From Amoebophrya sp. A120 (taxonomy: Eukaryota > Protista > Dinoflagellata): a stretch of DNA of 64,000 nucleotides. The position numbers and the translations under genes were made by a program. The notes beneath the pieces were generated by a model that saw only the letters and a program-made list of their open reading frames with translations, searched no databases and was not told the DNA's origin. Location of the stretch: NCBI GenBank assembly GCA_905178155.1, contig CAJINV010000003.1:1731557-1795556 (forward strand). The letters are read 5' to 3'. Shown here one piece after another: positions 3,314 to 47,701 of this stretch. Each line of letters opens with the position of its first letter. Position 1 is the first letter of the stretch.

Positions 3314-4908
3314 GTAGTGAGGTCATGGCTGTTTTTTTGTCTTCACGCCAAAAAAAGACGCGACTTCTTTGCCCGCCATGCCATCGCGAGTAACGTTATG
3401 CACGACGGCACGGCGGTCACTGAAAATCTCGACCCAGGGCTGGCCTCCATTTGTTTTCGAATCGAAAAGCCTTTCCCGCATGCTATGGCCCCGCCAGGGC
3501 CCCCGCCAGGGTTGGCCCCTTGGGAGCCCCAAATCTGGCCCGTAGCATGCGGATTGGCTTTTCGCCTTTGGCGGATTTTGTTTTTTTTTGTTCTTTTTGT
3601 CAAAATGCCGCATCTTCTGGCCTTGAGTCCGCCTCTGAAATGGCGGATTTTGGTGGCGTCTTTTACGGGGCTGGAATGTGAGCCAAAACGAGGCCCATAC
3701 CATGCGGATTCGCTGTTTTTTCCGGACTGCTGCTTTTTGGGCGCCCCTTTTTGTCAAGTAGGTCAGTTCTACCACAACCGCTAGGGTCTTTAAATGCGTT
3801 CAAGATTTTAAATATTTTTTTTCATACATGGGATCCGCCCAAAGCGCCGCGCCTCCGACCGGGGTCGCCACGTTGGCCGCACAGCCCGCCGCCATGATCT
3901 GAGCCAGGGTCTTGCCGCTTTTCAAATTTAACACCGAGAACGCCGCACTTTTTTCGAAAATGCGACAGCACTCTTAGCCTGGGGCCCCTACCTTGTGGCC
4001 CGAACACCTGGACCACCAGCGGCCAGGCCCCGAGACTTCCAGCCGCCGCGAAAGCGGCGGCCGCGCGCCCACGACCGCTCGCGCCGCTCGGAATTCCGGC
4101 CTGGCGCCGCCCGCGCCGCTCGGAGCGCTTCCGGCCGCTCGGGCCCTTGCCGGCGCTCCGGGCCGCTGCCGGGAGCGGGACGGGCTCGAGCGGCGCAGCG
4201 AGCGGCCCGGGCGGCTGCGCCGCTCGGACCGCCCGGGCCGCTCGCGCCTCTTCGCTGCGTTCGCGGCGCCCCGGTGCGCTCGGTGGAGCGAAAGGCTTCC
4301 AGGGGCGCGAGCGGCACCGCCCTGCGCCCCGGCGCGGGGGCGGCCGAGCGGCCCGGACGGCTGCGCGACGGCTTCGCGCGCGCGACAGTTTTTTTTTTTT
4401 TTGCTGCTACACATTAATTTGAAAAAACGAGCGCGATTTTCTTCGGTCTCGCTCTCCTGCCATTTTGCGAATCCGAAAAAACGAACCGACGAGCGCGCGC
4501 GCCCCACCATCTTTGTCCCCCATGTGAGCCAGACTAGAATAATCTTGCGTCACTGGAATGTGGTTAGCCATGCTAAACCAAGTGCAAGCTTTCATTTCGT
4601 GAACGCATTTAAAGCGCCGAGCGGTTGTGGTAAACTGACCTACATAATTTTTGGGCGCCCCAAATCGCCAGAAACTAAGGCGGCGGGCGCCTCAGAAGGG
4701 CGCCCCTTTTGCCGGCTCCCCTGCGTCGTTTTATCAAGCGAGAATCGATAGAATCCGCCCGGGCTACTTTGCCGCTAAAGCCCCGGCCGCTTAATAATTG
4801 AAAATCTTTTTCGTCAAAAAACACTTCCGCCCGCTTGAAAACTGCCGGCCATTTTGCAGGTGAGGTGGCAAAAAAACAACTAGGATAGAACGTTCGTGAC
4901 CTCACTAC
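3314..4908. repeat. Extremely GC-rich palindromic island bounded by a 12-bp inverted repeat
   Basis: gtagtgaggtca (3314-3325) and tgacctcactac (4897-4908). The core at about 4020-4385 is almost pure G/C with repeated gccgctcg and overlapping inverted repeats. Flanks have A/T homopolymer runs. No credible protein. Confidence 0.45.
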
Positions 4909-16703: not shown

Positions 16704-19655
16704 TTAAAGATCGGGCGCTGGTAGTTGTTCTTGCTCGACCTGCTGGTCTCCTGTCGGAACTTCGTCGTCAATCTGCCACCAGTACATCCAGTCCATGGCA
16801 AGGAAAACCCTTTGATTCGGTCGGTTCTCCCACACGGCACGCACCACTCCGGGCCATTGAGGACTAAAATCGTGCCCGAGCACCAGCCCCCCAGGAACGA
16901 TTTTGGGGATCCAGAGCCGGAGATCCTCCTCGACGCAGTGGTAAAAGTGGCATCCGTCTACAAAAACTGCATGGATGGATTGGTCGGGTACGTTTTTGAC
17001 CTGTAAAGTGCGATCGGATTTTCAGTCCTCTCAGAAACCGTCGTGGTTCTGCGAATTGCAGCATACAACGCTTGTTGTGCATGCGTGGGAGAAGGGAGTT
17101 GGTTTGCATCTATGCAAATGATCATGTTTTGAACGAACGATGAAACCCGAACAAATACAAATGCACAACGATAAATTCTTGTAACGTAAATAAATTCTAT
17201 ACGGCCTCCAATGACGTGGTCGGCCACAGCGTCGCGCGTCCGGGCCCTGACTCTTCGTATATGGCCATGGCGTTCGAGTAGGCGACGGATGGGTCCAACG
17301 TCTGCGAATAATCGCCTGGAAAGGTCTCGTCCGTACCCACGTACGGATCAATACCTAAGGAGGTGGAACGTTCATGCGCAAAGCGAATTTATTATTCGAC
17401 CTGAACGGACCGTAAAATACACTATTCTCACAGCCATGAATAACATCAAAAACAATCAACAAGCCGAAATGTTGAGAATAATCAAAGAAACGCACCTATC
17501 AGCTGAAGTTTGGGGAACTTCTCGAGAAGAAACTTCGAAAAGTGGCCGGCAAACACGCCTACTTCTACCACCCGCAGCTCTTCTACTCCATACTCTTCCA
17601 GCAACGAGTTCACGATTTCCCACCGCATACCAAACTTCTCGCTGAAAAAGAAGCGTGGCTTCGACGTTGGGAGGGGGTACGTGTTGTTGGCGTCGTTAGC
17701 CCCGAGCTTCTCCCATCGCTTTATATTGCCCCACTCCGTGTGAACCACCTGCTTCGCCTCTATCACGTCTTGGACCTGTGCAAAGGACGATAATCGGATG
17801 AGTGCGGAATAGCAATAGGTACTTACCCCGCAGCTGGCACGATTCCCACCTCTTTTTCATTCGCATTCCTATTTGCATATAATATGCCGACGATCATTTC
17901 AATTTTTTCTCTGTTATATCCTTATTGGATTTCGTGCTAGTGCTGGTCCTCTGGCTTGTTCTGCATTCAATCAATACGATTCGGTTTTCCTGTAGTTTCT
18001 AGACTTAAACCACATCGGTTGCAGTCGTACCCACAGAAAGTGGTTAGCCTGCCACGCGTTCCATCGGACCCACTGCGACACGTCGTTGACGACGTCCACG
18101 GAGAGGCGCCAGAAGTATGAACTGCAAAAGTATCGCACTCCCACTCGTATAAATGCATTACAAATTTCCTCAGCATGAGAAATAAAATTTGTAATGCAGA
18201 TTTGCCTTGGAAGCAAGATTTGTAATGCAAGACTTGCATTTGTACGAGTACGATACTTTTGCACAGGATAAGAAGGTCGAGGGCGGAATTTTCCCCGCGT
18301 TCTGGTCCTGCTTGGCCATTATGCATTGCAAAAGTATCCCTTGCACTTGCTTTAGTAAAATTAGCATCACAAATTTCATTGGCAAGAGCATAAGTGGGAT
18401 TTGTTATGCTGACGCAGCTTGGAAAAGACATTTTTCATGCCTGGATGCAATTTATACGAGTCAGTTGCGCGATGCTTTTGCAGTGCATAGCTACCAGGCC
18501 TTCCAGGTACTTTTTGCGCCACTTGCCGACCTGGTCGGCTACGTAGTATTTCAGGGGGCTCAAGTAAAATATCAAGTGCAAATATGTCTGGGTCTGGAAG
18601 AATGGAAGGTTTGGTTGGTTGGTTGGTTGGGTAGCGCCTGTCGCCGGTGCAGGTCCCGCCCTCCATCGATTGCGATCCGGAGTAGCCGGAACACAAGGCC
18701 CTAGTGGCGCAATCAAGGTTTGTCATGCATATTTTGAATGACCCATGACGTCTGCAATGCATGCCCTAGCATCACAGATTTTGAGAGCGCTTTGCGATGC
18801 TTCTACCGCATGAAAAATGTTGCCCTCTCAGCGTAGCACAAACTACTGGAGTCCTCTTGCTGGTCTTGCAATACAAATTTTTTTTAGGATCCAGAGACAG
18901 CATCACAGGTTTAGAACCTTCCCGACCCAGACATATTTGCAATCCATATAAAACCGCTCCTCGCACCGCTCCATGCGGCCCCGGATGTAGTTCGCCGCCA
19001 TGTTGAGAAAGGGCTGGCAGCCCACCGTGTCCCCGTACAGGTTTACCGCGTTCTCGTGGTATTTGTCGTCATCACTGCCGCACAGCACCATGTAGCCCAA
19101 GCTCATGGCCATCAGGTCGAAGGACAGCACCGTTAACGCCTCGCAGCCCCGCTTCTGCACCTTCTCATTCCCAGTGACCTTGCAGGTCAGCATGGTCTCG
19201 TTCACGCCGATAATCAAATCCTCTATCCCAGGACTGGTTTTGGCGGCACTGTAGGCCTGCTCGAGGCAATACTCGCTGTCGGTATTCATGAAAAAACTAA
19301 AACACCCATCCCGATCCATTTTTATTTTTTGCATGACAAGCAGAGGAGTTTATGATTACTTTGCATGACAAATTGTATGGGGATGGGTGTTTTAGTTTTT
19401 TCCTGGATAGTCGGCGAGCGAATGTTCCTCATCGGAGAAGCAATCCAGAATGCTACCAAAGGTACGCGTCGCGAATGGCTGGAGCGTGTAAAGTGACAAG
19501 GGGACGCCGGTGCTGGTGTGGGTATCGTTCTTCGCGCTCGCCAGGGCGAAGTTTGCCACTAGTCGGAAAAATGCGTAAGAAAAGGCTACCAGGCTGCAGT
19601 GGGTCGCGGTTTTTGCCCCCACATTTTGTCTTGGTTTCGAGGACGCTTCACCCAT
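16704..19655 (-). CDS. Class I SAM-dependent methyltransferase (Methyltransf_24-like) with N-terminal signal/anchor; multi-exon
   Basis: Motifs VEVGVFAGHFS, IGIDPY, AVFVDGCHFYHCVEEDL and KIVPGGLVLGHDF after removing GT-AG introns. 5' exons joined through four introners. Start codon and the 17.8-18.0 kb junctions are uncertain. Confidence 0.75.
18116..18270 (+). mobile_element. Introner-like MITE, family 1 (opposite orientation to 7993-8137)
   Basis: tatgaactgcaaaagtatcg...cgatacttttgcacaggata. Direct repeat agaag (18111-18115, 18271-18275). Removal gives PSTF|WRLS. No GT or AG at the boundaries. Confidence 0.9.
18320..18489. mobile_element. Introner-like MITE, family 1-related
   Basis: tatgcattgcaaaagtatc...gatgcttttgcagtgcata. 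Degenerate duplication gccat/gctac. Removal gives EGLVA|KQDQ in frame. Confidence 0.85.
18570..18948 (+). mobile_element. Introner-like MITE, family 2, with a nested insertion
   Basis: IR tgcaaatatgtctgggtc / gacccagacatatttgca. Direct repeat taaaa (18565-18569, 18949-18953). Removal gives ERFY|LSPL. Homologous to 33685-33949 and 46343-46615. Confidence 0.9.
18614..18714 (-). mobile_element. Short retroposon-like insertion with (AACC)n tail nested in an introner
   Basis: Flanked by aaggtttg (18606-18613, 18715-18722). A (ggtt)n run lies at one end. The segment is absent at the equivalent position of the copy at 46343. Confidence 0.65.
19283..19409. mobile_element. Introner-like MITE
   Basis: IR aaaaaactaaaacacccatccc / gggatgggtgttttagtttttt. 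Ends tat...ata. Direct repeat gtcgg (19278-19282, 19410-19414). Two gcatgacaa motifs. Removal gives HSLAD|SEYC. Confidence 0.9.
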
Positions 19656-33130: not shown

Positions 33131-36100
33131 TCAAAGCCGTGCTTTCGCCGGGAAGTCGCGCATGGCCATCCTGACTCCTAAGTCGGCCATAATCTCTTCG
33201 CTGCCGCCCAATATGGAGGCGAACTTGTAGGTCCGGTTGAATTTTTCGCAGCCGTCGCCCAGGCCGGTCTTTGTGATCGCCCGGCCGCCGAACACCTGGC
33301 ACGCTTCGTCTGCCAGCATGGTCATCGTGCGCGTGGTGTTGTACTTCAGAAAAGAGATCGGGCCCGCGAGCTTCGCGACCTGGGTGAAGTAGTATGAGAG
33401 TGCGCAACTCCCCCTCCCCCTCATTTGTGTGGCATGAGCAGCAATACAAATGCCTGCACATCTGGAGCCTGTGCTTCACAAGTTCACGGGCCGATGGTAG
33501 TACTGACTTCTTGAAATTTGTCATGCAAACAGCGCCACAGGGGCAGGGCAGCAATAGCAAATGGCTTTGCAGTTTTGCATGACAAATGAGGGGGAGCAGG
33601 GGGTGTTGTGCACTCTCATAAGTAGTCCATTTTGTGCATCTGGTAGGTGATCTGTTCGAGGTTACTTTGCACCGCCTCCACCGCTATCAAATGTAAAAAT
33701 GTCTGGGTCTGGAAGAGTCCGAAATTTCTTATGCTGTTTTTGCATGACACAGAATGTCTGTCATGAAAGCCCTAGCATCACACATTTCTAGAGGCCTTCC
33801 TGATGCCGATTCCGCATGACAAATGCCCTCCACGCGTAGCATAAACCGGACTCCTCTACTTGCTGGTCATGCAATACAGAATTTTTTAGAGTCCAAAGTT
33901 AGCGTCACAAGTTCCAAACTTCCAGACCCAGACACTTTTGCAATCCATAACCGCCGCAATCATTTTGGCGAGCTTCTGCCGGATCACGGGTTCCTCCGCG
34001 AGAATTTTGCCGAAGACCTCGCGCTGCATCGCCCACTGGAAAGTTTCCTGGACCAGCTGCCGCATGATGCCAAGACACTGGCAACTGATGAACCACCGCT
34101 CGTGGTTGAAGCTATCCAATGGAAAGATGTTCTTGTTCATCCCAAACACGTGCAAAATGCATCGCAAATTTCGCTTTTGCTTAAGTACTTCGAGGATATA
34201 TATCACTTGTCATGCTAAAGTAAATAATAGAATTTTTGAAGAATATAGGAAACTTTTGGCATGCAGATGAAACCGCATTCTACTATTACGTGTGCCTGTA
34301 GTGAACAAGAATGTCGTGATATTTATCATTTCCAGTGGATAAAAGTTCGCCATGATGCACTTGAAGCCTTGGTTTTCCTTGCCCATGAGATTCGCGACCG
34401 GCACGTACACATCGTCGTACATTACCAGTGCCGTGCCCGCGCATTTCGAGTAGCTGGTTTGAATCTGCTTGGTGGTCACATCGTTGCCCTGGTTGTTGGC
34501 GAGCTGTTTGGCGTTACGCGGGACCAGCATCATGCTGATGCCTTTCATACCCGGGCCCCCGGTGCGCACCGCCGTGACGAAGTATGCAATACAAATTTCC
34601 CGCACATGTACAAAATGCATGACAAATTTCGCTATCGCTACCTTGCAGAGTCCAACTTGTCAGGCAAACTAGGATCGAAGCCAAGTTTTGTCATGCGGAG
34701 ACGACCGCATTTGTACGTGTACGGGAAATTTACTGTGGATACGAAGTAGTCGGAGAACATGCCGTTGGTGATCCATTTTTTCACGCCATTGAGGATGTAG
34801 TACCCGCCGCACGCGGATTTTTTCCCAGTCAGCTCAATGCGGGCGACGTCGGACCCGGCGGACGGCTCCGAGATCGCGAGGCAGATGCGTTTCTGGCCGA
34901 GCAGGCACTCGGAGGCCACAGTTTGCGCCAGGTCGGGCTTCGAGAAAATCAGAACCGGGGGGAGGCCGATGCAGAGCCCGGCGCCCAGGCCGTCGCCGTA
35001 ACCCGGCTGGCGTAAGCGGCCCAGTGCCTCGTGTGCCAGCATTTCGTGAAAGACATCAAAGTCGTCCGGCGATACGTTTGCTGGCAACTTGATGCCCAAC
35101 TCCTTCGCGAGCTGATAGTCATGCGCGGTAGTAATAGTGAGCGTGTTTTCTTTATCTTTTGGAAGTACTTATAGGCGCCCAGCAGCAGCTGGAAAAGTGA
35201 AACGCACTCGCCCGCGCGAATGCTGCGGCAGCTTTGCGGCAAGAACGCCCGGCGGCACGAACCAACGAAAAGCAAAAAAATCCGCGGCGCAGGGATCGAA
35301 CCTGCACCACCCAGCCGCTAGCGGTCTTCTGAAGCCACGGGGGACTCCTTCGAATTCCGAAGGCTCTACTATACACGAGGCGCCCCCTCCTACTTGGTAG
35401 GACGGCCATCGTCAGACTTTAACTGGGTGCACTACCAATTGTGCTAGCCGCGGTGTTGCCTTGAACGGAAACGACTTCACCCGGGTCGCCAGAATAGCTT
35501 TGCTAAACACGGGCATTCGGGCAAAAAATGCGACAAAAAACCAAAAGTTATTCGATAAGGAAGGAATTCCTTTGTTCTTGTGGGTGAAAAACTACACAAA
35601 TAACTGAGAAAATCAAAATGTCGAACTCCAACAAGACCAAGGGTGACGAAGATTAATAATTGTATGTACCGGCATTGCGGCGGTTCCGATCCGGGAGGCG
35701 AGATAGCCAAACGCGCCCATTTTTTCGTACACCTCCTTGGTCGGGTATTCGTCGGCAAGTTCCCCCTCAACGGCATCCTCGAGCAACTCGTGCTTTACGA
35801 ATTCGCGGCACGCACGGTAGAACTCCTTGTGGCTGTCGTTCATGTACGGCGAAACCGCCCATCCCTCCCGGTTTAGAGGTGCTTCCGCGTAAGGCACCTC
35901 ACTGACCACGTCCTCCTCTGCCGCTGAGGGGATTGCCTGTTTGTGTTTAGTTTTCTTTATTGCAGAAAAAGTGCATATATTTTTAACTACAAGTACAACT
36001 TCTAACTGTGTCCGTATGGGTCTCGTCCCTTGTCGTCAGCATCACGTAGTTCACGAAGTGCACAGGTAATAGCTCTGGTTCCCAGAAGGCAAGAGCAAGA

Positions 36101-36477
36101 CTAGAACTAAAAGTCTCCCTATGCACAAAATATCGAAGAAGCACTAGAACTACGTCCTCCGCCGCGAAATTTTCCAGGGATCCCACGCGGAGCCGCTTGT
36201 ACTTATCCAAGATCGCCTTGTTGTGCAGCGCGTAGAACTGCTTGGAGGCGTCTTTTCCCGCCACGGCCAGGAGGACAGCCCGGCCACCCGGGTGGAGCTG
36301 CGAAAACTTGGTGAGATCGTAGACCTGGCCATTGATGGCGATCCACAGGTCATTAGGTTGGTCGTGCTTCTTCAACTCCTCGAAGCTCACGACCTTGTTG
36401 ATGCCAACATTTTCTGATTTTGCTGTCTTGGTAGTAGAGGACGACGAGCTGCTCGAGGACGAGGCAACCGTCGCCAT
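33131..36477 (-). CDS. Acyl-CoA dehydrogenase with N-terminal cytochrome b5-like heme domain
   Basis: WIAINGQVYDLTKFSQLHPGG (cyt b5). CLAISEPSAGSD, LNGVKKWITNG, ANFNHERW, QREVFGK, ACQVFGG and ILGGSEEIM (ACAD). Four introners plus two other introns. Confidence 0.93.
33393..33620. mobile_element. Introner-like MITE, family 3
   Basis: tatgagagtgcgcaactcccc / ggggtgttgtgcactctcata. Direct repeat agtag (33388-33392, 33621-33625). Removal gives KMDY|FTQV. No GT-AG. Confidence 0.92.
33685..33949 (+). mobile_element. Introner-like MITE, family 2
   Basis: tgtctgggtctggaag / cttccagacccagaca. Direct repeat accgc (33680-33684, 33950-33954). Removal gives IAAV|EAVQ. Confidence 0.92.
34113..34341. mobile_element. 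Introner-like MITE
   Basis: tatccaatggaaagatg...ttcttgttca / tgaacaagaa...tttccagtggata. Degenerate duplication gaagc/aaagt. Splits the conserved ANF|NHERW motif. Confidence 0.88.
34583..34741. mobile_element. Introner-like MITE
   Basis: tatgcaatacaaatttcccg / cgggaaatttactgtggata. Direct repeat cgaag (34578-34582, 34742-34746). Removal gives SDYF|VTAVRT. Confidence 0.92.
35281..35453 (-). tRNA. tRNA-like gene, anticodon AAA by canonical numbering, with a 101-nt insert at 37/38
   Basis: Acceptor CCGCGGC/GCCGCGG plus A73, D stem GCAC/GTGC, anticodon stem CCCAG/CTGGG, T arm GCAGG-TTCGATC-CCTGC. A and B boxes intact, T7 run directly downstream. Lies in GT-AG intron 35112-35669 of the ACAD gene. 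Confidence 0.8.
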
Positions 36478-38309: not shown

Positions 38310-41300
38310 TCACGCACCCCAGGCATCGAAAGGCGGTTGGGGGCTAGAGAACCCGGGCCACGTATCGCTGATAAACTTGGACACCCCGGCTAAGTGGGTC
38401 GGGGTCTCCTCCGGCGCCGGCTTCTGGTCCGCAGGACAACGGCCGTAACAGTCAAAGCCTCTCCCTCTCTCCAGCGATGGCTGACTCCATCCTGGCCAAT
38501 AACGACGAGCTGGCTTGTTCTCCTTGTCGCCCGTCCTCCCAACGGAGGATGCTGTGGTAGAGGACTCCGCGTTATGAACGGACAAAATACAATTTGACCC
38601 CAGAAAGAGCATATACTGTCACGAGAATGAAACTAGCGGCCTACGAGAATGAGGAAGCAAATGGGGCTCCACCCGCTTACAACTTTTCCCGCTCCGGACG
38701 GGGTAGACGCTGCACTTTTCATAGGGCTTGTGCCCGTTTTTTCGCGCAAAGCTACTTGTTTTGCGCGCGGTTTTTCTTCGCTCGAGCGGTCGGGTGGCGA
38801 AAAACTGCAATACAAAATTGGAAAACCGGCCGGATGCAGATGCAGCTTTTCTCCCCGCAGGAGAAAAGCCGCATCACAAATTCGCAAACTCCGCTTCCTC
38901 CGGTTGGAGAAAGACCGCGCCTCCGGTTCTCCGCATTACAAATGCGGAAAGGTGCCCATTGCCATTGCATTTGTAATGCGGAGAGCCCGACCTTTCAAAG
39001 GTCGGGCTCTCCGCGTTACAAATGCAATGGGCGGATGAAAGGTCGGGCTCTCCGCATTACAAGTGCGGAGTGCGGGGCTCCCCAGAGCTCGGGGTTCGGG
39101 TTGTGGGTAAATGGGGAAAGGGGAAAGCCCGGAGCCTCGGGTTCTCCGCAACCCGGGCTCTTCTCCGCATCACAAATCCCTCCTTTCGCCACAAGCGGCT
39201 GCCGCAGCCGCTGCACACCGTCGTGCGTAACCTTTTGCGCGATGCTATCCCCAAGCAGCAATATTCGCGCTCCCGATAGCATCGGGCATGAGGTTATGCT
39301 GCATGGTATCGCTGCGTGCGAATCCGAATTTCCCTCGCAGCCATACCATGCTGCATTAGGTTACGCCCGACCTGTGGCTGTCTTTTTCTGCCCCCCTTGG
39401 GCGTTTGTGCAGCTTCTTTTTACCCTCAAACACGACCGGACTCCGGGGAAAACTGTGGCTTAGGGAGGAAGCACAACTTTTCCGCGGACCACCCCGAGCC
39501 GGCCCCATGGTCACCAAAAGGCGCCCGCGAGACACGCCGAGGCCGCGCGCAAAATTGCAGCGGTTGTCTTTGTTTCGCAAGCACGCACGCCCGTGAGAGT
39601 GGCCTCCCCATTTTGCGCGCCGGCTGCATCTTCTACGCCGGGCCCGGGCCGGGGGGGTTCTGATTGATGGGAGGCCGTCGGCCGTTCATTCTTTCTCTTC
39701 GCTACCTAGGCTACTCAAAATGTCGCGGCGCGACCGGCGCTTTTATTTTAAGGGCCAGCGCACTCTCGTGCACATTTGGCCCGGGGGTGTCGTGCGAAAA
39801 AAACGCGGGAAACCAGGATGGACCAACGCAAAGAAGGCCACCAACCACCCCCACAAACCGGGGCGGAAGACAGACTGAAAGACACCAGGTGGGCCCGGCA
39901 ACACAATATGCGGGGCGCGCCCCGCCTGTTTAGTTTCTGCGATAGAATCACCGGGCGGGGCCCGCTTTTGCGCGTCGCCTGCCTTTCTTTTCGTTCCCTG
40001 TCCGTCGCCCCGGCCCCGGCAAACTTGGGCACATTGCGCGAAGCCCTTGGCGTGGTGGGGCTTGCACGGGGTGGGACAATTGCCGCCGCGCGCCCAAAGC
40101 TGTGCGCGGCCAGCGGGCTCTGTCTTCTCTGTGGACCGAAGGGCCGGCGCATGTATGTAACGGAGGGCGAAGGCCGCCGGTACTAGATGCATTGGTGGCC
40201 GCGTCATGCAATAGCGCAGCTCCTGCCCGCTGGCCAACAGGCTGGCCGCGCCCGTCTCGGCCCACAATGTCCAGGGCCCGCCGGCCGGCACGGCTTGTGG
40301 CGGGCGCGCGCGTGCGGGCAGGCGGTGCCTGCGCTGCCACTGCATCGGCCTTGCCAATATCCGCCAGCCCCGCCTCCTCGCCTCCCGCTTTCGCCGTTGC
40401 CCCCGGCCCCACTGCGCCTGGGCCCCATCCTGCGGGCGCCGAACAATTTTCAGAAAAAAGAACGTCGGCAAAGCGCTGGGGCCCCCCGGCCGGAAAGACC
40501 TTGGGCAGAAATTTGCCCGAGGGGCGCCACGCGCCTGCCGCCTCCCGCCCCCCCTCTGCCCTTCTGGCCGGCCCCGGTATTGCCGTCGGCGCGCTGCATT
40601 TTTGGCCAGCGCCCGCAGCTTTCCCCCAGTCCCCGGGCATTTCCCGTGTGCTTCCGGGTTGCTGCGGGCAGGGTCCCGTAACTTGCGGCGCGAGAATGAT
40701 TCTCGTGGCGGGCTTCGCATCTGCATGAAATTCCTTGCCATTCTCGCGCAAACGTAGTGTTTCCGCGAGAATGAAGAGGTGTTTCACGTCGAAAGCTAGG
40801 CCCTGCGAAAATCATTCTCGCACCGCTCTTTCTCGGGTCCGCCCGGCGCGGTTCCGAATCCCACTTGCCCGAGCGGAAATATCGCGTAAACCCGGCTCGC
40901 GTCGGCCCGGCGGGCAGCTCCGCGCGAGGCATTGGGGCAGTGCCGCGCAGGGAGAAACAGGGAAGCGGGCGCGGCTTGGGGGGCGACATATGCGGGCTGG
41001 CGCAACGAACGGAACAAGGCGCCGGCGTGTGCCTCCCAATCTGACGACCACCAGGCAGCGGGCCCGCGCGGGCGCTGAATACAACAGGCCCGGGCGTCGG
41101 GCGGTTTCTTTTCAATCGCCAGAGGCTGTGGCCGGCCGCTGCTCGACGCGGCCGGCCCGCCCGCCCGTTCGTTGTATTCTATCTGGGGCCGCCCAGAAAG
41201 CCAACCGCGCCCATTGTTTGTGGCAAGAATGAACGGCGGCGCGCGCGCTGGGAGTTGAGGCCGGCGGGGTGGGTGCAAGCCGAACTCCCAAGGCCTGACT

Positions 41301-43568
41301 GTCATGCCGCCGCGGCCCGGTCCCTCCGACAGGGCTCACGACAGTGGGCTCGGAAGATGCCCTGCCAAACATGTAGAAGACATCGGGCCCGGGGCCCCCG
41401 CTTCCGGTTTTCAGTTTGTTAGTTCGGCCCCGGCTCCGCGGTTGCGCGCGATCGAAGGTCTGAGGAAGGTGCGTCACAGCGAATACTTGGCTGGGCCTGC
41501 CATGGCAGTGGCCCTGCCCCACGAATCGCCGGGGCCCCCGCCTCCTTCACGCCTTGTCGGCCGCCCGGGCAAGGCGGGCCACCAAGCTGGTATGCGTGCG
41601 CCCGTCGGACTCTCTCCAAAGGCATGCGCATAACCGGCACCGAGCCGCCAGCGGGTCGCGCTTTTTGCAGAGGCGCCCTCCCCCCTCCACTTGAAGCATC
41701 GCTACCGGCGCTGCCCCAGAAACACCGCCAGCGCACCGGCGCCCCTAGCTCCGCACCCTTTCTTTGGACCCCAGTAGGAAAAGAAACGGAAAAAACAAAA
41801 CGAAAAGCCACGCAGCTTGCCACAAAAAGCGCGCCGGCTACACAACGAAGGCGCGCGCTGGCCCCTCATTGCTAGCGACCGGACCCTCGGGGCCCGGCGC
41901 AAAAACGGCAAACGCCAAAAATCGGCCGTGTCTGCGAAGGTGTTTGTATGCTTGCGAAACACCGAACGCCGCGGGAATTTGGGCCATTGACTGCACGAGG
42001 GCCCGCGCGGCCCCGTGGTTTGATGCGGGAAAAGGGGCACCGCGGGGCCGGCTCGGGGTGGTCCGCGGAAAAGTTGTGCTTCCTCCCTAAACCACAACTT
42101 TCCCCGGAATCCGGTCGTGTTTGAGGGTAAAAAGAAGCTGCACAAACGCCCAAGGGGGGCAGAAAAAGACAGCCACAGGTCGGGCGTAACCTAATGCAGC
42201 ATGGTATGGCTGCGAGGGAAATTCGCACGCAGCGATACCATGCAGCATAACCTCATGCCCGATGCTATCGGGAGTGCGAATATTGCTGCTTGGGGATAGC
42301 ATCGCGCAAAAGGTTACGCACGACGGTGTGCAGCGGCTGCGGCAGCCGCTTGTGGCGAAAGGAGGGATTTGTGATGCGGAGAAGAGCCCGGGTTGCGGAG
42401 AACCCGAGGCTCCGGGCTTTCCCCTTTCCCCATTTACCCACAACCCGAACCCCGAGCTCTGGGGAGCCCCGCACTCCGCACTTGTAATGCGGAGAGCCCG
42501 ACCTTTCCGCCCATTGCATTTGTAACGCGGAGAGCCCGACCTTTGAAAGGTCGGGCTCTCCGCATTACAAATGCAATGGCAATGGGCACCTTTCCGCATT
42601 TGTAGTGCGGAGAACCGGAGGCGCGGTCTTTCTCCAACCGGAGGAAGCGGAGTTTGCTAATTTGTGATGCGGCTTTTCTCCTGCGGGGAGAAAAGCTGCA
42701 TCTGCATCCGGCCGGTTTTCCAATTTTGTATTGCAGTTTTTCTCCACCCGACCGCTCGAGCGGAGAAAAACCGCGCGCAAAACAAGTAGCTTTGCGCGAA
42801 AAAACGGGCACAAGCCCTATGAAAAGCGCAGCCTCTACCCCGTCCGGAGCGGGAAAAGTTGTAAGCGGGTGGAGCCCCATTTGCTTCCTCATTCTCGTAG
42901 GTCGTTAGTTTCATTCTCGTGACAGTATATGCTCTTTCTGGGGTCAAATTGTATTTTGTCCGTTCATACTCCGCGTCGGAGGAGACTTCCAGAAACGACT
43001 CCACGGGCTCGCCCTTGGACCAGAATGCTTGCTCCTCCGCACAACTCACGACGCCGTCGTTGTTGATGTCCGCGCCGGCGCGCAAGAGCCGCTGCGTCTG
43101 CACAGAGCACTCAATGGCGTCCAGATCCGCCATCGTGACTAGGGCCGTATCATTGATGATCTTTTCGATGATCTTGACGGAAACTGATTCCGCCGCTGCG
43201 AGCATCGGCGGCTGTTGTGTGTGAAGTTTGGTGTGAAAGCGAATGAGCTGATGTCCTCAATGTACTTATGTCACAAGAAAAGAAAGAGCTTTATGTATAT
43301 GTCACAAAAGAAAGAGCAACAGCTATTCCTACTGCCACGCGGACGGAACAAATGCTGGACCTCCTCAATACAGAAATACCATGATGACATCGGAGCTTTT
43401 GCGCGCGGTTTGCTGCAGCGACTGCGGCATCCCTTCCGCGCCGATCTTCTTGGTGCTCGTCCCAGTGAGGTCGAATTTGCCCGCTTCCATGTCCGTCATC
43501 GCGGCTTGGTTACCTCGGACATAGAGCGCCAAACAGCTCACAACGATTTTCGGGAAAAAAAGCCGCAT
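38310..43568 (-). CDS. Putative secreted EF-hand-like protein interrupted by a 4.4-kb foldback element
   Basis: Signal-like MRLFFPKIVVSCLALYV, EF-loop-like DINNDGVVSCAE. Removing 38573-42968 plus one 8-bp duplicate joins SSDAE|SSTTAS in frame with ORF 38310-38612. Confidence 0.6.
38573..42968. mobile_element. Foldback DNA transposon with about 930-bp terminal inverted repeats
   Basis: Arms 38573-39506 and 42044-42968 are near-identical reverse complements. Ends tatgaacggacaaaa...ttttgtccgttcata. Target duplication ctccgcgt (38565-38572, 42969-42976). GC-rich 2.5-kb interior with no recognisable transposase. Confidence 0.93.
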
Positions 43569-45704: not shown

Positions 45705-47701
45705 TCACGTGAAACCGTCGCCGTCCCCCGTATTCGTGTTAGTTGCTGGATTGTGTAATTTAACTTTGCTTGCTCGCGACGAGGGTGGCCGCGAGGTACT
45801 TCGAACCCCAGGAGGTGGCTGTGGTTGCGGCACCACTTTGCCCAGGTCATCTAGGTCCACCAGTGGTGGGAGTGAGACCGACGACGGTCCTTTCTCTGGT
45901 GACTCTGCAGTGACCCGTTCATCCGGAAGTCTCCCTTGTGTTGGCTGCGGCGCAGGTCTATTGTCGCGACCTTCCACTTCAGTTACAGTTCCCGTTTCTT
46001 CTTCCCCTCCGACACGACCTGCGCCAGCTTGTAGTTGTAGTTCCAGCGGCAGCAACGTTTCCGCTTTCATCGCTTGTGCGTTGTCGTCAGAGTGCGATCC
46101 TTGATGATCGTGTTGCTGTGACGTTTTTGGTTCGTCTACTGTGGCCCCGCCTGCGCCTTCGTTTTTCCCCTTCTGCAGAAGCAAAGCATCTTTTGCTCCA
46201 GTACTGCTAGCCTTAGTCTCGTCGTGGGCAAGAACATAGTTCCGCTCCTCCAGTACCTCCGTCAAGTCGGCGCCGTCATCTTCGCCTTCTTCGTTCCGTT
46301 GGCGTATGCCGTCCTGGATCTCTTGCGCATACTTCTCAACGCGATCCACTGCAAATGTGTCTCGGTCTGGAGGAAAGCGAGGTTTGTCATGCACGTTTTT
46401 TATGTCCCACGATGCCTTGCCTGTAATGCATGACCTAGCATCACAGATTTTTAGACGTCGGCTTCCTGATGCCTATCCCGCATGAGAAATGGCGTACTGG
46501 CGTAGCACAGACTGGACTCCTCTGGCTGCTGAAGCAATACAGATTTTTTTCGAATTCAAAGACAGCATCACAAGTTGCAACCTTGTTCCAGACCCAGACA
46601 TATTTGCGATGCATAAACGCGATCCACCAGATCTTCGTCGCAGTCTCGGCGCAGGTGCTTCTCCTGCTGAAGTTGGAGTCGGAGCTCGTAGAAAATTTCC
46701 AGGCAGTAGGCGTGGAACTCCTCTGCCGGAGTGACCTGCACGTCGGCATTCGGACTGGTATCAACGACGGGCGACACGCTGCGGACTGCGTTGAGGGAAT
46801 GAAGCTTCTCGGCAGTCTCAGCGACATACTCATCCATCTTCGTGTTCAAGGTCGGGAAAAGCGTGTCCAAGGTGTCGGAGAAGACCTTGCATAATAAATC
46901 AGAATAAAGAGGGAACTTCAACATTTAGTTTTTCATTTTTCCGCCTCGAAAAATGAGAACACGTCCGTGAGGACTCGGCAGCTGTGTCGTCACCATTTTC
47001 TATTACACCTTGAACTTCTAGCTGTGAGTGGGTTCTTTTGCAGCTTTTACTTGTAACTTTAGCTAGACCAAGATCATCAAATTCAAATTTGAAGTTGTAC
47101 AACTTTGTCGACAGCAGCAGCGCATGGTGTTGCTAAGTACCTGGTGCCCTTGTGGAGCATGGTCTCGTTCCTTCTCGAACACTTTCCGAATGCTCTCCGT
47201 GCAGTTTTCCAATCGAGACAACTCCTGTTGCAGTTGCTTGATATCTGCGGCGTTTTCCGTGTTCTGTTGCGCTTTTTTCACTTCGAGAGCTTCGCAGCGA
47301 ACGTGCAGTGCGCGAAATGAATTTTGCAGCTTCTCCACTTTTGCCTGCACCTTCTGCTCGACGTGAAGGAAAATTTCGGTCCCCGCGTCTTCGTGCAAGT
47401 GGCGAAGTGCCTTGTAAGCCGCTTCCCTCCGTCCCTGTTCTGTGGCCAGCGTGCGTTCCAAGAGGTCGAGGTGCGCCTTCGCCGCTTTTTGCTCCTCCGG
47501 TACTTCCTCTAAGGCGGCAGCGTCTCGCTCGCTCTGCAGCTGCTGGGCGCATTCTTGCAGCGCGGCCGACCCTGCTGCTAACTTCTGCCGCAAGCGTGCA
47601 TTCGGACTGGAGGCTTCGATTTTTGGCGATGGAGGAAATTCTAGCTTTTGCTCCTGCAAAAGAGTTGGCGACGAGCAGGCAGGAGAAGCTGTACTGGCCA
47701 T
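45705..47701 (-). CDS. Hypothetical coiled-coil protein, multi-exon
   Basis: ORFs 47063-47701, 46568-46924 and 45705-46394. The last two join via introner 46343-46615 (LVDRV|EKYAQ). Confidence 0.7.
46343..46615 (+). mobile_element. Introner-like MITE, family 2
   Basis: tgcaaatgtgtctcggtctgga / tccagacccagacatatttgc. Direct repeat aacgc (46338-46342, 46616-46620), extending to the 12-mer aacgcgatccac. Confidence 0.9.

Follow-up and report, generated by a model that had tools for sequence, protein, structure and literature searches.

A perfectly paired tRNA-like gene with an AAA anticodon and a K-turn-patterned predicted intron lies within a host-gene intron of Amoebophrya sp. A120

A 64,000-nt stretch of DNA from the dinoflagellate Amoebophrya sp. 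A120 (contig CAJINV010000003.1, positions 1,731,557 to 1,795,556; hereafter the window) contains a tRNA-like gene within an intron of a protein-coding gene. The tRNA-like gene lies on the minus strand, 35453→35281, a strand that an earlier note on this DNA had not given, and it is a real feature: its stems are perfectly paired, its anticodon in the canonical register is AAA, and the 101-nt insert in its anticodon loop is closed by the sequence pattern of a kink-turn (K-turn). Our preferred reading, to which we assign a probability of about 0.4, is that the gene is a tRNA shell, probably Tyr-derived, that is kept to transcribe and release the K-turn intron RNA and not to decode. Long tRNA introns and archaeal C/D RNAs within introns are already known; what appears to be new is a perfectly paired, intron-containing tRNA gene that has an AAA anticodon together with a K-turn-closed intron. 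The whole case is one sequence and a pattern in its DNA, from which we infer every later step.

The layout of the gene is that of a tRNA interrupted in its anticodon loop: the acceptor stem has 7 bp, the D stem 4 bp and a loop of 8 nt, the anticodon and T stems 5 bp each, and the variable loop 4 nt. In place of the 7-nt anticodon loop stand 108 nt. All stem pairs are Watson-Crick (7/7, 4/4, 5/5 and 5/5, or 21/21), and residues U8, A14, G18, G19, A21, U33, G53-C56, A58 and C61 are all in place. With intact A and B boxes and a run of seven T residues, the gene has the cloverleaf, invariant residues, boxes and oligo-T of a eukaryotic intron-containing tRNA gene, and its acceptor end, C1:G72 with A73, agrees with the identity set of tyrosyl-tRNA synthetase (TyrRS). 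Thus, the perfect stems, boxes and oligo-T described in the earlier note, its numbering (U32 U33 A34 A35 A36 G37, then an insert at 35316-35416), and its pairing of a canonical AAA with this acceptor end were all borne out when numbering and pairs were checked. An interrupted cloverleaf occurs only once in the window and in 0 of 30 shuffles of it, and the whole window has one B box. ARAGORN detected the gene when introns were allowed, labeling it Val(AAC) with a 101-nt intron, and reported 0 genes in the window when they were not. No match to the whole gene was found in Rfam, and its two halves matched the tRNA family RF00005 weakly (9.8 and 11.9 bits; E 7.8 and 2.2).

To place the gene, we used contigs from sequencing runs, of which X1 is DNA-like and X3, X4 and X6 are, by our guess, RNA. 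The intronic location reported earlier was confirmed by a contig joint between 35111 and 35670, by GT-AG ends and by the sense orientation of the tRNA-like gene. Over this gene, X1 contig 8 (34715-36600) has 0 differing letters, as do the X3 and X6 contigs that span the anticodon. Because the X1 contig matches without any difference, AAA is genomic and not a sequencing or assembly error; the possibility raised before, that GAA or GTA had been misread as AAA, is excluded, since no contig has other letters at the anticodon. Editing of AAA to AGG (Pro) or to GAA was considered and rejected, as the contigs covering the anticodon are unchanged, although these are probably pre-mRNA. The X3 and X4 contigs retain the host intron unspliced, and an X6 contig spans 35370-35529; there is no joint within the tRNA-like gene in contigs of the presumed RNA runs, which are uninformative on tRNA splicing. 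Raw reads of the RNA runs X9-X11 gave 0 matches to the window, host exons included, and so carry no information on expression. The summed X1 depth across 35281-35422 equals that of the single matching contig (45.6), and among the X1 matches listed for this interval, no second contig of at least 80% identity covers the insert or the 3' exon, with the reservation that 35-nt matches, the size of the 3' exon, are near the detection limit of the comparison. Apparently, then, the tRNA-like gene is single-copy.

Removal of 101 nt from this gene is possible in eight registers, which yield AGC four times, AAC once and AAA three times. Only the cut at 37/38 has a full anticodon stem, three of the four central pairs and a 3-nt bulge, and in this register the loop pairs with the intron through U32·G(-3), U33-A(-4) and A34-U(-5). 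As described in PMC10275265, the eukaryotic endonuclease relies on the distance from the tRNA body and on a pair between a pyrimidine at 32 and the third-last intron purine, within a bulge-helix-loop. All of this is present at 37/38, albeit energetically weak. If splicing occurs, AAA is therefore the likely product, since the 37/38 geometry leaves the stem intact, whereas the Val register is costly and the Ala registers form nothing. The earlier note had overlooked the Val(AAC) register and the canonical anticodon-intron helix, as well as the K-turn. It had pointed to an alternative loop with an AGC (Ala) anticodon; four registers do give AGC, and G3:U70 is absent as it had said (the gene has G3:C70), but this loop has no splice geometry. 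None of the eight registers gives GTA, the anticodon of tRNA-Tyr. From tRNA-Phe, which has G34 A35 A36, G20 and G1:C72, the gene differs by A34, U20 and C1:G72 and agrees only at A35, A36, G37 and A73. In contrast to tRNA-Val(AAC) and tRNA-Ala(AGC), which have A37 and, for Ala, G3:U70, it has G37 G38 in the corresponding registers and G3:C70.

The AAA triplet itself is unexpected. Anticodons of the form ANN in split boxes are reported to be universally missing (PMC8007984), and the supplement of PMC6394959 lists 0 tRNAs for UUU and 10 for UUC in a sister strain. The long open reading frames of the window use UUU 78 times versus 96 for UUC among 5609 codons, an ordinary proportion. An origin from the Karlodinium strain with a reassigned stop codon does not explain it either, as the long reading frames are open under the standard code.

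The predicted K-turn consists of a 4-bp Watson-Crick C helix, a 3-nt bulge and tandem GA pairs, followed by U-A, G-C and G·U pairs; it spans 94 nt, a size like that of small nucleolar RNAs (snoRNAs). As a sequence pattern, noticed post hoc, it agrees with the standard K-turn as defined in PMC5061560. In 10,000 dinucleotide shuffles, a strict K-turn arose anywhere in 43 and closing the loop in 4, and the window has three such sites in 128,000 positions, the insert site included. According to PMC4382518, a Watson-Crick pair directly after the GA pairs marks K-turns for which ions by themselves do not suffice for folding; its presence in the insert would imply a protein partner, which we infer to be Snu13. 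The insert is a K-turn RNA in pattern that fails membership among box C/D snoRNAs. No meaningful match to it was found in Rfam. Guides of box C/D snoRNAs are complementary over 10-21 nt to rRNA, snRNA or tRNA; the complementarity of the insert to its own tRNA exons is at most 7 nt.

Two perfect 6-bp hairpins within the insert are mildly unusual: 44 of 5000 shuffles and 21 of 1266 tiles of the window have at least two. The helices listed in the earlier note all occur as strings. However, its view of the insert as highly structured was an overestimate, as the whole insert folds no better than shuffles, and the TCTGA/TCAGA pairing (probability ~0.2) competes with GUCU/AGAC (~0.43). We rejected an H/ACA reading, for which two ANANNA and three ACA/AGA sites are present but the pockets are lopsided, and also the insert as the missing U1, as RNase P, U6 or telomerase RNA, or as a selenocysteine insertion sequence (SECIS), because there is neither Rfam support nor a telomere template. 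A 7-nt match between hairpin A and the D loop is expected by chance. The 10-nt loop at 35376-35367 resembles the U2 branch-site sequence plus two extra bases, quite possibly by chance.

We favor a tRNA shell because it covers the perfect tRNA shape with its unusable anticodon loop, the canonical splice geometry and the K-turn. The gene would be transcribed by RNA polymerase III (Pol III) from its internal boxes, and the transcript would be trimmed by RNase P and RNase Z. The tRNA splicing endonuclease would then measure to 37/38 and cut, aided by the three pairs that join U32, U33 and A34 to the intron. The freed intron could remain linear or be circularized by RtcB; circularization would again place a G before UCU and restore the 4-bp C helix. 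Binding of the K-turn by a protein of the Snu13/L7Ae family would give a stable small ribonucleoprotein (RNP), and the ligated 72-nt product (AAA, G38, U20) would probably be poorly charged and unused. Selection would act on tRNA shape and not on the anticodon, which fits the intact stems alongside a forbidden triplet. In particular, the stems have Watson-Crick pairs at all 21 positions, whereas the anticodon loop deviates from that of tRNA-Tyr at positions 32, 34, 35 and 38. A bolder version, in which a eukaryotic tRNA gene is now devoted to making a new small RNP RNA, with the anticodon freed from selection and splicing releasing a Snu13-bound K-turn RNA, is in our judgment doubtful. The lineage has tens of thousands of non-canonical introns, and no U1 snRNA has been detected in it; unrecognized small RNAs are to be expected there.

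Several observations weigh against the shell. The insert folds at -33.5 kcal/mol, compared to -32.4 ± 3.5 kcal/mol for its shuffles (z -0.3), and 355 of 1000 shuffles do as well. The anticodon-intron helix has a probability of ~0.05 and lies 2.5 kcal/mol above the fold that pairs U32 with G38; by our estimate, three such pairs would arise by chance about once in 20. Furthermore, G37 is part of the K-turn C helix, so the predicted 5' splice site is covered. Under relaxed rules, 1648 of 10,000 shuffles contain a K-turn anywhere and 148 of 10,000 have one closing the loop, and because several other motifs had been tried before the K-turn came to light, the shuffle figures overstate its significance. 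Box C (consensus RUGAUGA) matches at five of seven positions and box D (CUGA) at three of four, and the box C loop uridine, described as required for L7Ae binding (PMC7994747), is replaced by C; no C'/D' pair and no free guide are evident in the insert. The Tyr ancestry is based on the acceptor end and D loop only, and no homolog was found in the viral, prokaryote-genome and metagenome scans, leaving no covariation.

In these scans, an exact 24-mer gave 0 matches in metagenomes, and a D-arm pattern gave at least 121 viral loci, none with a CCG start. Relaxed patterns with CCG matched 66 loci in viruses (bacterial-type Pro for the most part, and a single Tyr), 2 loci in prokaryote genomes and 24 in metagenomes (12 Tyr, one of them incomplete, 7 Gly and 5 other), none of them homologous. 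All 12 eukaryote-type tRNAs among the 24 metagenome loci, which have a CCG start and a similar D arm, are intron-bearing Tyr(GTA) genes, and the 32:(-3) pair is present in each of the five distinct intron-bearing Tyr genes that were parsed. Over 125 parsed tRNAs from these pattern-selected sets, body identity was best with a bacterial-type Pro (44/61) and 33-37/61 with the Tyr genes. Descent from an intron-bearing tRNA-Tyr is plausible from this comparison, rather than shown, because the comparison sets were chosen by pattern. The Tyr-type assignment made earlier therefore stands for the acceptor end, C1:G72/A73, and as a plausible ancestry, but not for the body of the tRNA, which is distant.

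A phage tRNA-like gene (L062/L112, the same as L215/L216 and one lineage) has the D arm, a CCCAG stem and scattered words of the insert in common with the Amoebophrya gene. Beyond the D arm, 21 of 1000 shuffles are as similar, and the phage insert, a plain 36-nt helix, has no K-turn; given this shuffle rate and the missing K-turn, we treat it as chance or convergence and not as a relative. L214, a third match in that search, is protein-coding. The phage cluster itself (L216:2984-3089, 3354-3451 and 3468-3634, also in L215) has two or three tRNA-like genes in which a structured extension of 25-71 nt replaces the anticodon loop, the first with compensating changes between the two contigs. tRNA clusters in the viral and metagenome contigs L048, L049, L076, L094, L106 and L203 contain a tRNA 5' half (D arm) with no matching 3' half, and L048 and L076 have weak matches to YrlA (Y RNA-like).

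Alternatively, the RNA might act unspliced, as a tRNA-shaped scaffold of ~173 nt in which a branched domain, bent by the K-turn, replaces the anticodon loop. The anticodon stem would then be extended to 8 bp (A26-U44, U32·G38 and U33·G), AAA would be one strand of an internal loop, and the C1:G72/A73 end might be tyrosylated. This is the minimum-energy fold (U32·G38 probability 0.73, A26-U44 0.83), it accounts for the odd G38 and leaves the C helix intact, and the phage genes of L215/L216 with their structured anticodon-loop extensions indicate that such an architecture exists. We consider it unlikely, however, since the anticodon-intron pair and the 3-nt bulge are exactly at the endonuclease register, where cleavage is expected. 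It is likewise improbable that the tRNA gene was inactivated recently or is neutral, its long intron being ordinary and its K-turn due to chance, and that it makes no relevant product or serves only as a chromatin element bound by TFIIIC. The authors of tRNAscan-SE regard unexpected anticodons as probably non-functional (PMC8450103), the stability of the insert is ordinary, there is no sign of conservation in the scans, and introns of ~100 nt are within the known range (6-133 nt for eukaryotic tRNA introns in PMC4090602, and a predicted 323-nt intron in C. elegans in PMC8450103). Random decay, though, usually strikes stems first, whereas here the 21 stem pairs include no mispair and both boxes are preserved, with a loop unlike that of Tyr at four positions. 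A recent parent copy, moreover, would have given a second X1 contig over the 3' exon, within the detection limit already stated.

There is little to recommend the non-standard decoder suggested in the earlier note, taken here as a working A34 tRNA that reads UUU after canonical splicing and is charged with Phe or Tyr, although the spliced product would be a clean 72-nt cloverleaf with G37 after A36. Identity rules are unfavorable: phenylalanyl-tRNA synthetase (PheRS) requires G34 (in the cytosol also G20) and TyrRS G34/U35, and with inosine at 34 the tRNA would misread UUA. In addition, G38 is atypical and the use of UUU and UUC in the window is ordinary, while the rule that A34 is universally missing from the Phe-Leu box (as reported in PMC8007984) speaks directly against such a tRNA. 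As a variant, Phe could be supplied by the monomeric mitochondrial PheRS for an AT-rich mitochondrial cox1 fragment; A120 is reported to have this enzyme and AT-rich mitochondrial DNA (PMC7789003, PMC8136515). Non-canonical splicing would remove the odd anticodon altogether, at 35/36 to give tRNA-Val(AAC) or further 5' to give tRNA-Ala(AGC). ARAGORN picks the former, the 35/36 register has a bulge-helix-bulge-like motif (2 outer, 3 of 4 central and 4 inner pairs), and some unicellular algae and nucleomorphs are known to have non-canonical tRNA introns. Nevertheless, we consider this very improbable, as the re-pairing of the anticodon stem makes the Val register ~8-10 kcal/mol less favorable (-61.0 vs -68.8 and -71.3), both tRNAs would have G37 G38 in place of A37, and the Ala registers have neither splice geometry nor G3:U70. 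Finally, the genome is rich in repeated intronic elements, and the earlier note had suggested a young tRNA-derived short interspersed nuclear element (SINE); an introner inserted into a tRNA is a related option. Both are largely refuted. Instead of many dispersed copies, depth over 35281-35422 is that of one contig, with no second X1 contig over the insert or 3' exon among the matches listed, whereas the nearby introner at 34577-34740 draws hundreds. The insert also lacks the 8-20-nt terminal inverted repeats, the 3-5-nt direct repeats and the repetition of Amoebophrya introners.

In the plant dicistronic tRNA-snoRNA genes reportedly described by Kruszka et al. in 2003, a tRNA gene likewise serves as the Pol III cassette of a small RNA; there, the snoRNA is said to lie downstream and to be freed by RNase Z, and not to come from an anticodon intron. 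The closest eukaryotic parallel is the Drosophila tRNA-Tyr-GTA gene CR31905 (circular intron tric31905; PMC4536317), which is also Tyr-type, has a long structured intron (113 nt) at 37/38 that yields a stable RNA, and is likewise described as missed by default tRNA scans (PMC8450103). It differs in its normal GUA anticodon and its conserved, expressed intron, whereas the Amoebophrya gene has AAA, a K-turn-like closure and is known from DNA sequence alone. Euryarchaeal pre-tRNA-Trp contains a box C/D guide RNA in its intron (PMC7994747, PMC4090602) and is alike in that a K-turn-closed RNA is nested in a canonical tRNA intron, from which the archaeal one is freed by tRNA splicing. As described there, however, the archaeal intron has consensus C/D boxes and guides against its own exons, and the tRNA is functional. 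The Amoebophrya gene is eukaryotic and nuclear, with degenerate boxes, no C'/D', exon complementarity of 7 nt or less and a forbidden anticodon. Eukaryotic intron-bearing tRNA-Tyr(GTA) genes (L175, L190, L196, L213; Mesodinium, 10.64898/2026.07.09.736142) have in common with it C1-C2-G3, G72, A73, the same 8-nt D loop, G37 followed by the intron and the 32:(-3) pair. They differ in their 11-23-nt introns, GTA, C32, A38 and 5-nt variable loop, and 33-37 of 61 body positions are common. A literature search, which covered few subscription papers, found neither this gene nor any eukaryotic tRNA intron with a K-turn RNA.

If the tRNA is indeed kept as a shell, it would represent a route to new small RNAs, in which the tRNA shape is kept for Pol III and the endonuclease, decoding is dropped and the intron is used, and it would provide a reason why some tRNA genes with forbidden anticodons remain perfectly paired. 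Because default scans miss them, more such genes may hide in protist genomes. The bolder version, a gene devoted to a small RNP RNA, would give the archaeal tRNA-Trp intron guide a counterpart in the nucleus. A spliced AAA tRNA that was charged and used would break a rule reported as universal (PMC8007984), and a pseudogene would be ordinary.

Table 1. Positions in the window of the tRNA-like gene, its predicted intron and the surrounding host gene.
Feature	Position	Strand	Remarks
5' exon	35417..35453	-	tRNA positions 1-37: acceptor 5' strand, D arm with A box, anticodon stem 5' strand, U32 U33 A34 A35 A36 G37
Acceptor stem	35453-35447/35288-35282	-	
D arm	35444-35429	-	
Anticodon stem	35427-35423/35314-35310	-	
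U32 U33 A34 A35 A36 G37	35422-35417	-	
Anticodon 34-36	35418..35420	-	AAA in canonical 37/38 register
Insert	35316..35416	-	101 nt; predicted tRNA intron at 37/38
K-turn, bulged strand	35406..35417	-	C helix 35417-35414, 3-nt bulge 35413-35411, GA 35410-35409; box-C-like 35412-35406 (5/7)
Insert hairpin A	35388..35402	-	6 bp, 3-nt loop
Predicted branched domain	35340..35387	-	helix 35387-35382/35345-35340 around hairpin C (35379-35364, 3 bp, 10-nt loop) and hairpin D (35363-35347, 6 bp)
K-turn, non-bulged strand	35324..35332	-	box-D-like 35331-35328 (3/4), GA 35329-35328, C helix 35327-35324
Intron positions -5 to -3	35318..35320	-	predicted partners of A34, U33 and U32 (anticodon-intron helix); 3-nt 3' bulge left
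3' exon	35281..35315	-	G38, anticodon stem 3' strand, 4-nt variable loop, T arm with B box, acceptor 3' strand, A73; no encoded CCA
G38	35315	-	
T arm	35305-35289	-	
A73	35281	-	
T7 run	35274..35280	-	Pol III terminator-like
Host spliceosomal intron	35112..35669	-	GT-AG, 558 nt, same strand as tRNA-like gene; joint 35111-35670 in contigs of X3, X4 and X6 (3 of 4 runs)
First three exons of host gene	34741..36477	-	gene runs on to lower coordinates; PF00173; homologs with PF02770/PF02771

The host gene encodes a cytochrome b5 domain fused to an acyl-CoA dehydrogenase, and its reading frame of 320 residues has no stop across the exon joints. For the neighboring intron, contigs of the presumed RNA runs join 35935 to 36153; another run, X8, gave one 151-nt host-exon contig and short partial matches. 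An X3/X4 contig spans the whole tRNA-bearing intron (35083-35699), and the neighboring intron, 35936-36152, is without cover. This unevenness could reflect slower splicing or intron length, and contig depth is not decisive. At 34577-34740, the host gene has a 164-nt non-canonical intron that is spliced out in the X3, X4 and X6 contigs and has hundreds of related X1 contigs, making it an introner; many-copy non-canonical introns have been reported for Amoebophrya A25 and A120 (PMC7789003).

Upstream of the tRNA-like gene, extra X1 contigs are present within 35423-35564 (probably at ~35470-35560), with ~56 + 160 nt (~216 nt) of single-contig cover. In the simplest reading, a short segment is repeated elsewhere in the genome, although the extra cover may include a match to the 5' exon of the tRNA-like gene. 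The segment folds as an imperfect hairpin of ~55 nt with no meaningful Rfam match; it is perhaps a Pol III element upstream of the gene, or else a small mobile element. Elsewhere in the window, near-perfect terminal inverted repeats of ~940 bp, with internal palindromes, surround ~2.5 kb at 38573-42968, which is probably a terminal-inverted-repeat or foldback transposon. A second repeat family with inverted ends is present at 18570-18949, 33685-33949 and 46343-46615, and one copy is located in the later part of the host gene.

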